This document shows, piece after piece, positions 41,048 through 42,013 of a stretch of 64,000 bases of DNA. The translations under genes and the position numbers were made by a program. The stretch is from Escherichia phage WPEC3: the sequence record PV611058; one strand, given 5' to 3'. Positions within the stretch are counted from its first letter, which is position 1, and each line of letters starts with the position of its first letter. A model generated the notes under the pieces. It was not told the origin of the DNA and made no database searches. It saw only the letters and a list, made by a program, of their open reading frames with translations.

Positions 41048-42013
41048 TTAAAAATCTTCGAACTCATAACCTTTTGTCTTAACCATCTTACGCAGTCGTT
41101 CCATTGCTTCAGAGTACTTACGGTGCAATGAAGAACGAGCAGTCATGACCTTACCCTTCTCATCTTCAAAACCACTCTCAATGATTTCTCGTAGCGTTTC
41201 TGGTTCAGAATAAGAACCAATACCATGTACACGTTCAATCAATTCACGGTCTTTGGCAGATAGGTTACTCATCATTTCTGCAATACTTTGTACCAGTGGG
41301 GTACTGACAGTTTCTACGCCTAAGTTGTAATCAGGTTCAACTGAAGTAACAATGTCAGATAATGTACTTTCTGAATCATTACTCATTTTCATATTCAATG
41401 CTACATAAGTGTTATTGTAAGTTAGACAATTCTTAACGTGTTGAATCTCAATACCAGTCTCTTTTGACACCATCTCAGGAGTTGGGTATTTACCATGTTT
41501 CCTTTGATACTCTTCTACACAACGTTTCACATAAATGTTATTAACACTCATATAACGTGGAAAATGCACTAGATAATTAGCATCCGCACTTTCGTTATAG
41601 ATTGTCATGTACACAGTTGTTGTTGCATATGTAATGAACTTAACATTTTTGGTAGTGTCGAACGTATGAATTGCTCGCATTAAACCTTCAACACCATAAG
41701 AAATCTTATCTTCAAATGGGATAAAACATGTACACTTACGTGCAACACTTACTACCATTGGATAGTTGTAGCGAACCAAAAGGTCAATGTTCTTTTCAAC
41801 GTCAATACCATCACGCACTGCTTGGATGAGCATTTCATTCGTTATCCCTTTAGGGCGAGTTAAGCTGATACCTGTTTTTGGTTTCTCAAACTTGTGACCG
41901 TCATGTTCTTCTTCTTCGACGGAATCAAGAGCCTCTAATACGTTGACTTCTTCACTAGCAAAACACTCATCCAGTACTTCTTCAGAAATTGCATTTAAAT
42001 CAAGCTTTTTCAC
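41048..42013 (-). CDS. Sigma-70 family RNA polymerase sigma factor (group-3-like; GTG start)
   Basis: 321 aa; region 2 motifs LVRYNYPMVVSVARK and YGVEGLMRAIHTFD...VKFITYATTTVYMTIYNE (compare sigma70 region 2: GLMKAVEKFD...FSTYA); C-terminal region-4-like helix-turn-helix LSAKDRELIERVHGIG...ETLREI...MTARSSLHRKYSEAMERLRK. Start codon is GTG with RBS GGAG 7 nt upstream. Confidence 0.75.
   Translation of the reverse strand: MKKLDLNAISEEVLDECFASEEVNVLEALDSVEEEEHDGHKFEKPKTGISLTRPKGITNEMLIQAVRDGIDVEKNIDLLVRYNYPMVVSVARKCTCFIPFEDKISYGVEGLMRAIHTFDTTKNVKFITYATTTVYMTIYNESADANYLVHFPRYMSVNNIYVKRCVEEYQRKHGKYPTPEMVSKETGIEIQHVKNCLTYNNTYVALNMKMSNDSESTLSDIVTSVEPDYNLGVETVSTPLVQSIAEMMSNLSAKDRELIERVHGIGSYSEPETLREIIESGFEDEKGKVMTARSSLHRKYSEAMERLRKMVKTKGYEFEDF

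Follow-up and report, generated by a model that had tools for sequence, protein, structure and literature searches.

An RpoD-like sigma factor of an Escherichia jumbo phage and its proposed place in middle transcription

Several phages redirect the polymerase of their host with sigma factors of their own, and the stretch of Escherichia phage WPEC3 analyzed here (64,000 nucleotides of record PV611058, 'the window' below) contains a gene for such a protein. What kind of sigma factor is it, and which promoters might it serve? The initial annotation described a complete sigma-70-family factor of group-3 (FliA/SigF) type in the accessory region of a T4-like phage, possibly a host-derived module. 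The gene is real, and all of the peptide segments quoted for it are present in the 321-aa open reading frame. The observation is thus confirmed; the framing around it (T4-like, accessory, group 3, host-derived) turns out to be mostly wrong.

The sigma gene, its operon and its relatives

The gene and the signals around it are as follows.

41048-42013, minus strand: sigma coding sequence, 321 aa, GTG start, TAA stop
42020-42024, minus strand: Shine-Dalgarno sequence AGGAG, 6 nt upstream of the GTG
41014-41043, minus strand: intrinsic terminator of the sigma operon, 11-bp stem, UUCG loop, T7 run
42036-43220, minus strand: three co-oriented operon genes upstream of the sigma gene (86, 139 and 165 aa)
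43260-43288, minus strand: early sigma70-type promoter TTGACT-17-TACAAT, heading the operon that ends in the sigma gene
43581-43609, minus strand: second upstream sigma70-type promoter, TTGACG-17-TATAAT

Two details given earlier, the GTG start and a hairpin terminator belonging to the gene itself, are borne out. The GTG is supported by homologs with the same N-terminus, MKKLDLN, and the terminator (AAAGGGTTGAC-TTCG-GTCAACCCTTT, then a T-run; 41043-41014) lies 5 nt past the stop codon. The operon is read on the minus strand through 43220-42960, 42954-42535 and 42533-42036, with the sigma gene last. Both promoters at its head are close to the sigma70 consensus, and the gene is located in a long block of small genes that has been taken as the early region in CBB; the sigma factor would thus be an early product, made by the host sigma70 holoenzyme. 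A Pfam search of the operon partners returns zero matches, and PHROGs were needed instead. The 165-aa gene adjoining the sigma gene upstream (42036-42533, minus strand), which is annotated as HslV in fEgEco12, has weak similarity to the HslV-family PHROG 1040 (E = 2.8e-6).

The 3 kb around the sigma gene are 99.6% identical to Escherichia phage Ecwhy_1 (354 kb), 98-99% identical to fEgEco12, Turkey3, vB_Ec-M-J and WPEC5, and ~83% identical to Asteriusvirus phages of the PBECO4/121Q type. On this similarity we assign the phage to the Rak2/Asteriusvirus-type 'group 2' jumbo phages (~355-380 kb), with PBECO4, 121Q, RaK2 and CBB as relatives, and not to T4-like phages in the strict sense, as first proposed. 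Rak2-type jumbo phages have T4-type core genes in common with T4, yet they are a separate group. Nor does the region look accessory: the sigma gene is conserved across the phage group, and orthologs are found in at least 70 phage records at coverage of at least 80%. Identities to the sigma factor of the window are listed here for several hosts.

Klebsiella RaK2-type phages: 40%
Cronobacter GAP32 and Pectobacterium CBB: 37-38%
Salmonella Munch: 37%
Serratia BF and Erwinia phages: 34%
Yersinia fHe-Yen9-04: 33%
Xanthomonas XaC1: 31%

The orthologs fEgEco12 g519, PBECO4, Sharanji RpoD, CBB_513, GAP32 and RaK2 are 33-99% identical to it. The RpoD-like sigmas of group 2 jumbo phages (PHROG 351) have a common N-terminus, an insertion in region 4 and a position in the early region, and the gene in the window is a member of this family that differs in nothing essential. 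It is already annotated as 'RNA polymerase sigma factor' in most related records and discussed in the literature, and it is a known hallmark of Rak2-type jumbo phages. In one case the records disagree. The fEgEco12 paper lists the sigma factor (Gp519) as absent from Ecwhy_1; in a tblastn search, however, MH791411.1 has it at 1665-2630 (99.4% identical), under the annotation 'similar to RNA polymerase sigma factor', and the reported lack seems to be an artefact of annotation.

The sigma proteins of the two E. coli clades share only 59% identity, compared with ~83-96% for the flanking DNA, 96% for the adjacent RNA described below (nucleotide level) and 84% for SSB (amino acid level). Intermediate sigma variants exist (88%, 61%, 50% and 44%). 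Judged from these identities, the gene is a hot spot of divergence, although its recognition helix does not change.

Protein regions and sigma class

The regions of the protein can be placed on the DNA as follows.

41591-41779, minus strand: sigma region 2, aa 79-141 (Pfam Sigma70_r2)
41342-41530, minus strand: sigma region 3, aa 162-224 (Pfam Sigma70_r3)
41072-41296, minus strand: sigma region 4, approximately aa 240-314, divergent (RpoS/SigB alignment, pLDDT 75-88)
41141-41170, minus strand: family-specific insertion FEDEKGKVMT, aa 282-291, in the turn of the region-4 helix-turn-helix
41090-41140, minus strand: recognition helix of region 4.2, ARSSLHRKYSEAMERLR, in which R293 and S295 align with sigma70 R584 and R586

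Membership in the sigma family is supported by several kinds of search. PHROG 351 'RNA polymerase sigma factor' matches with E = 3.8e-48 and is the sole PHROG match at E <= 1, and phmmer matches the protein to 67 solved sigma structures. The profile search proposed as a check of the initial annotation confirms the family: Pfam detects region 2 (PF04542, 37.2 bits against a cut-off of 24) and region 3 (PF04539, 44.9 bits against 25.3), and has no match for region 4 (PF04545), though other evidence covers that region. Full-length RpoS and SigB alignments reach residues 308-319, the AlphaFold model has helices at 253-263, 274-279 and 293-314 (pLDDT 75-88) in a helix-turn-helix arrangement, and Foldseek aligns 265-300 columns to sigmaS. 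Since the full-length models and the predicted structure extend over it, the missing Pfam match was not read as absence, and we judge region 4 to be present but divergent. It falls under the Pfam threshold because of a conserved 10-residue insertion (8 alignment columns, pattern G[FYL]xDxKGK, conserved in the family) and a family-specific recognition helix, which is [ST]RS[ST][ILV]HR[KR]Y in the phage family versus TRERIRQIE in bacteria. At the other end of the protein, Pfam detects neither region 1.1 nor region 1.2 (PF00140); the bacterial matches carry PF00140. The N-terminal ~50 residues are acidic, and the AlphaFold model predicts disorder for them.

For a residue-level comparison, the phage sigma was aligned with 10 family members, E. 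coli RpoS and the C-terminal part of RpoD, and its residues were mapped onto sigma70 numbering. The core-binding motif of region 2.2 is kept (D102, G107 and G110, equivalent to sigma70 D403, G408 and G411), as are the residues of the -11A/-7T pockets (N83, F118, F126 and Y129, equivalent to N383, F419, F427 and Y430). At other positions the whole family has lost the sigma70 residue: the melting dyad W433/W434 is T132/T133 here and SS, VS or AA in relatives, Q437 and T440 are M and Y, and the extended -10 readers H455 and E458 are Y and V. In the recognition helix, sigma70 E585, R586, R588 and Q589 correspond to S, S, H and R.

Which class does such a protein belong to? Among the curated full-length NCBIfam models, RpoD_Cterm (TIGR02393) gives 96 bits (cut-off 354), SigB 83 bits, RpoS (TIGR02394) 81.8 bits (cut-off 378.7), SigBFG (TIGR02980) 67.7 bits (cut-off 234) and FliA/WhiG (TIGR02479) 61.4 bits (cut-off 189.6). 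The structural searches agree in direction: phmmer scores FliA 1rp3 at 39.6 bits versus 60-66 for SigB, SigA and RpoS, and the top Foldseek matches are E. coli sigmaS and mycobacterial (actinobacterial) sigmaA/B in initiation complexes. Because the RpoD, SigB and RpoS models score above SigBFG and FliA/WhiG, and all remain far below their cut-offs, the protein fits neither group 3, where it had been placed at first, nor a bona fide group 1 or 2. Region 1.2, W433/W434, Q437 and T440, by which groups 1 and 2 can be recognized, are undetected or replaced; the only group-3-like traits are the missing region 1.1/1.2 matches and the lost dyad. The protein is not of the T4 gp55 type either, as PHROG 351 alone matches and the gp55-type gene is at another locus. 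What it does have is the profile of the phage RpoD-like sigmas (PHROG 351) and orthologs in Rak2/Asteriusvirus-type genomes. The closest cellular sigmas are just 26-28% identical, and with no more than 28% identity to any of them a recent host origin, as implied by 'host-derived module', is excluded. We therefore view the phage sigma as belonging to a separate phage clade that probably came from RpoD-like ancestors.

Relative to E. coli sigmaS and sigma70, its best profile and structure matches, the phage sigma has the same sigma2-sigma3-sigma4 architecture and shares the core-binding motif and the -10 base pockets. It differs in being only 21-25% identical, in having no region 1.1, detectable region 1.2 or non-conserved region, and in the 10-residue insertion, the other recognition helix and the replaced melting and -12 residues.

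Promoter classes and the transcripts behind them

To describe the promoters, the whole genome of the near-identical phage fEgEco12 was assembled, and the boxes upstream of an extended -10 element, TGnTATAAT, were examined. Two boxes stand out. A TTGAC[A/T] box at the -35 position is found at 49 sites (7.6 +/- 2.7 expected), and a TG[A/G][A/G]AC box followed by N13 at 24 sites (5.3 +/- 3.1 expected). The latter is referred to here as the middle class; its consensus is TG(A/G)GACA-N13-TGnTATAAT. Without exception, the well-formed middle-class sites of fEgEco12 are intergenic and run in the direction of genes; downstream of them are a small ORF before DNA polymerase and the genes for the gp32-type SSB, primase, exonuclease and topoisomerase II, and also the tRNA block, the gp55-type gene g336 and the paralogs of a structured RNA. 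Sites in the window include the following.

40984-41012, minus strand: middle promoter TGGGACA-N13-TGATACAAT, directly 3' of the sigma terminator; putative target of the phage sigma
58488-58516, minus strand: middle promoter TGGAACA-N13-TGATATAAT, upstream of a tRNA-Ser
29787-29815, minus strand: middle promoter TGGAACA-N13-TGATATAAT

The CBB and GAP32 papers describe a 'divergent RpoD-like promoter' with the motif TGAAACG, found ahead of genes for DNA synthesis and of a gp55-like gene. From box and gene context, we take the fEgEco12 middle class to be the same class. In the window, TGAAACG in its exact CBB form shows no enrichment (7 sites, 6.5 expected); the E. coli clades use TGrGACA. A third motif in fEgEco12, (A/C)TAAATA, is located upstream of structural genes and resembles T4 late promoters. 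In the same genome the exact octamer of T4 late promoters, TATAAATA, is far rarer than expected (9 occurrences versus ~55).

The early region has a further feature of its own. A terminator hairpin, (A/G)GGTTGACTTCGGTCA(A/G)CCC, is reused on the minus strand of the window near 18934, 20912, 21632, 26254 and 32891, and also at 26935, 28513 and 29299. The TTGAC in its stem is at the same time the -35 element of the following TGCTATAAT promoter, and hairpin and promoter together make compact terminator-promoter cassettes between early genes.

The initial annotation had contrasted the sigma gene with the minimal gp55 of T4. This contrast does not hold, as the phage encodes a separate gp55-type protein as well, outside the 64-kb window.

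fEgEco12 190974-191912: gene g336, gp55-type late sigma, with its annotated start upstream of its own middle promoter (190987-191015)

The protein has no Pfam match; PHROGs were needed, and PHROG 12791 matches with E = 1.4e-152. The match begins only at residue 36, just downstream of the middle promoter, so the true start is probably near 191073. As in T4, the gene adjoins gp47/46-type genes. T4 gp55, a minimal sigma, resembles the phage sigma of the window in being a sigma-family protein that redirects host polymerase. A search of 3,313 six-frame ORFs for T4 AsiA and MotA detects no homolog of either; the best E-values are 2.3 and 0.4.

If the phage sigma reads the middle class, box and recognition helix might be expected to change together. 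The orthologous middle promoters of the pre-DNA-polymerase ORF, SSB, primase, exonuclease and RNA genes were compared across seven clades, with the sigma helices taken from the same clades. The architecture of these promoters is kept, and the box is clade-specific.

Window and fEgEco12: helix ARSSLHRKY, box TGrGACA
PBECO4, 121Q and phAPEC6: helix SRSSIHRKY, box TGrGACA
Munch and SE_PL: helix SRTSLHRCY, box TTGGGACr
CBB and GAP32: helix SHSTIHRRY, box TGrAACr
BF and fHe-Yen9-04: helix SKATLSRRY, box TGrAACn
XaC1: helix SKPTLSRRY, box TGAAACr
RaK2: helix VRGTLHYKF, box TTGAACr

The same helix goes with the same box, even between the two E. coli clades with their 59% identical sigmas. At the position aligned with sigma70 R586, Ser accompanies a 'GAC' box and Thr an 'AAC' box; the residue aligned with R584 is variable as well (R, H or K). 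A region 4 that reads the box would be expected to leave such a pattern, but the pattern falls short of proof: the clades are few and related, the seven-clade correlation is thus phylogenetically non-independent, and any clade-specific activator would give the same result.

The middle promoter next to the sigma gene appears to head a transcript of an unusual kind.

40491-40939, minus strand: core of a ~450-nt structured non-coding RNA, putatively transcribed from the middle promoter at 40984-41012
fEgEco12 59916-60390, 110671-111081 and 195789-196152: other paralogs of this RNA

The ~490 nt 3' of the promoter (41012-40984) are without a credible ORF. The two E. coli clades are 96% identical over this stretch; in CBB, GAP32, BF and Yersinia, Salmonella, Klebsiella and Erwinia phages identity is ~70%, and there the copy invariably follows the sigma gene at a distance of a few kb. 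In fEgEco12 there are four paralogs, each behind a middle-class promoter. The consensus fold from an alignment of nine sequences has 16 helices with 73 pairs, 30 of which show compensatory double changes. Of the cells in this fold, 95.6% are paired, versus 40-49% for slid controls; covariation scores 0.41 (0.05-0.11 in controls), and none of 500 shuffles reaches the observed values. A signature pattern retrieves 41 copies from IMG/VR, all of them in jumbo-phage contigs of ~350-380 kb or fragments, at 3-4 copies per genome; of the 37 copies with upstream sequence, ~30 have the middle promoter of their own clade.

Searches of the window and five orthologs against Rfam 15, at the gathering score and at permissive E-values, assign no family to the stretch, and a literature search found no description of a ~450-nt RNA family of this kind. 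The four ncRNAs of PA5oct were compared from the literature only, and no link to the family was established. Two resemblances noted by eye were rejected: a hammerhead reading (C3/U4 not conserved, no covariance-model match) and a likeness to RNase P (no covariance-model match). From these searches, the RNA family appears to be previously undescribed and confined to Rak2/Asteriusvirus-type jumbo phages. The small 'hypothetical' ORFs annotated over its copies (g160, g256, g340-342) are probably spurious, and its function is possibly tied to transcription takeover.

The window also has a cluster of six tRNA genes at 53.5-58.5 kb. Within it, ARAGORN predicts a tRNA-Ser with the anticodon ACT, that is, with A at position 34 (55580-55671, minus strand). 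Such an anticodon is unusual for bacteria and phages. Another tRNA-Ser (58388-58477) is directly behind a middle promoter.

A proposed three-step cascade and its alternatives

How might the sigma factor act? Transcriptional takeover, as suggested by the initial annotation, still seems the likely role. Four things were observed: what the gene encodes, the early type of its promoters, a middle class of promoters associated with particular genes, and the co-variation of box and helix. From these we infer that the phage sigma is the reader of the middle class. Its gene would be transcribed by host sigma70 RNA polymerase at an early stage of infection, and the protein would bind host core polymerase through its conserved region 2 and redirect it to phage middle promoters of the form TG(A/G)GACA-N13-TGnTATAAT. 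There, the box at the -35 position, which is not of the sigma70 kind, would be read by the insertion-bearing region 4; recognition of a TAnnnT-type -10 element would fall to regions 2 and 3. The middle promoters would in turn drive the DNA-replication genes, the gp55-type late sigma gene, the tRNA block and the four paralogous ~450-nt RNAs. Transcription would thus pass from host sigma70 (early) to the phage sigma (middle) to the gp55-like factor (late). Such a cascade is the simplest reading, because the gp55-like gene is behind a middle promoter and no AsiA or MotA homolog was found, and with modest confidence we consider it the probable one. A narrower proposal is put forward more tentatively, as a realistic possibility: region 4 with its insertion may read a lineage-specific TGrGACA/TGrAAC box and so replace T4 MotA/AsiA, with a regulon that includes the ~450-nt RNA family, whose 3-4 copies per genome always include one next to the sigma gene.

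Some of the same evidence is uncomfortable for a middle sigma. Middle promoters have an extended -10 that fits sigma70 perfectly, while W433, W434, Q437, T440, H455 and E458 are all replaced in the phage sigma; the box of the E. coli clades keeps GACA, as in TTGACA; and the lack of AsiA and MotA homologs is compatible with a non-homologous activator. Since the perfect extended -10 is kept while the reader residues are lost, host sigma70 is a serious rival, although in our estimate an unlikely one. It would read the middle promoters through TGnTATAAT, perhaps with a phage activator on the TGrGACA box by the logic of T4 MotA/AsiA, and the phage sigma would serve another purpose; it might read unrecognized promoters or sustain transcription when sigma70 is limiting or sequestered, as in stationary-phase hosts. 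The loss of the residues with which sigma70 reads -12 and TG is in keeping with this, as are the retained GACA and the overall closest resemblance of the phage sigma to RpoS. Against it, the search of six-frame ORFs found neither AsiA nor MotA, the TGAAAC box of CBB, XaC1 and BF is strictly conserved despite being unlike TTGACA, box and region-4 helix of the phage sigma change together, and no other conserved promoter class was left unassigned by the analysis.

The other alternatives have considerably less in their favor. A drop-in substitute for sigma70 at early TTGACA-N17-TATAAT promoters, freeing the phage during host shut-off, would suit a protein closest to group 1/2 sigmas and encoded in the early region; we consider it improbable, as the replaced helix residues and the 10-residue insertion make recognition of TTGACA unlikely and early promoters must fire before any phage sigma exists. 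A non-transcribing decoy that competes with host sigmas for core polymerase, and so shuts off the host, could explain why core-binding region 2 is conserved and the melting residues W433/W434 are lost. The -10 pocket residues and the recognition helix are, on the other hand, constrained across clades with 33-60% identity, and this constraint argues for DNA recognition and leaves the decoy very improbable. Finally, almost no weight can be given to a recently host-derived group-3 sigma (FliA/SigF type) carried as an accessory module. The absence of region 1.1/1.2 matches and of the WW dyad would agree with it, but the FliA/WhiG and SigBFG scores are below those of the RpoD/RpoS models and far below their own cut-offs, no cellular sigma exceeds 28% identity, and the gene is kept in all relatives.

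Returning to the proposed cascade with the phage sigma as middle factor, two known systems offer comparisons. T4 remodels host sigma70 through the MotA activator and AsiA. This 'sigma appropriation' has the same regulatory position, with a sigma70-like -10 element and a replaced upstream box, and T4 middle promoters likewise drive replication genes and the late-sigma gene; unlike T4, the phage has no detectable MotA or AsiA and has its own full sigma instead. In Bacillus phage SPO1, a phage sigma expressed from early host-sigma promoters (gp28) replaces the host sigma for middle genes. This gp28 is smaller and distant in sequence, and late transcription uses gp33/34, in contrast to the T4 gp55-type late factor here.

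The gene itself adds nothing new; the gain is a specific, testable model of the role of the phage sigma. The model predicts a specificity pair, Ser/Thr and Arg/His of the region-4 helix versus G/A of the box. The analysis also exposes an unannotated, strongly covarying RNA family under middle promoters. If the model is true, the three-tier sigma cascade of these jumbo phages would be a functional counterpart of the T4 MotA/AsiA system.
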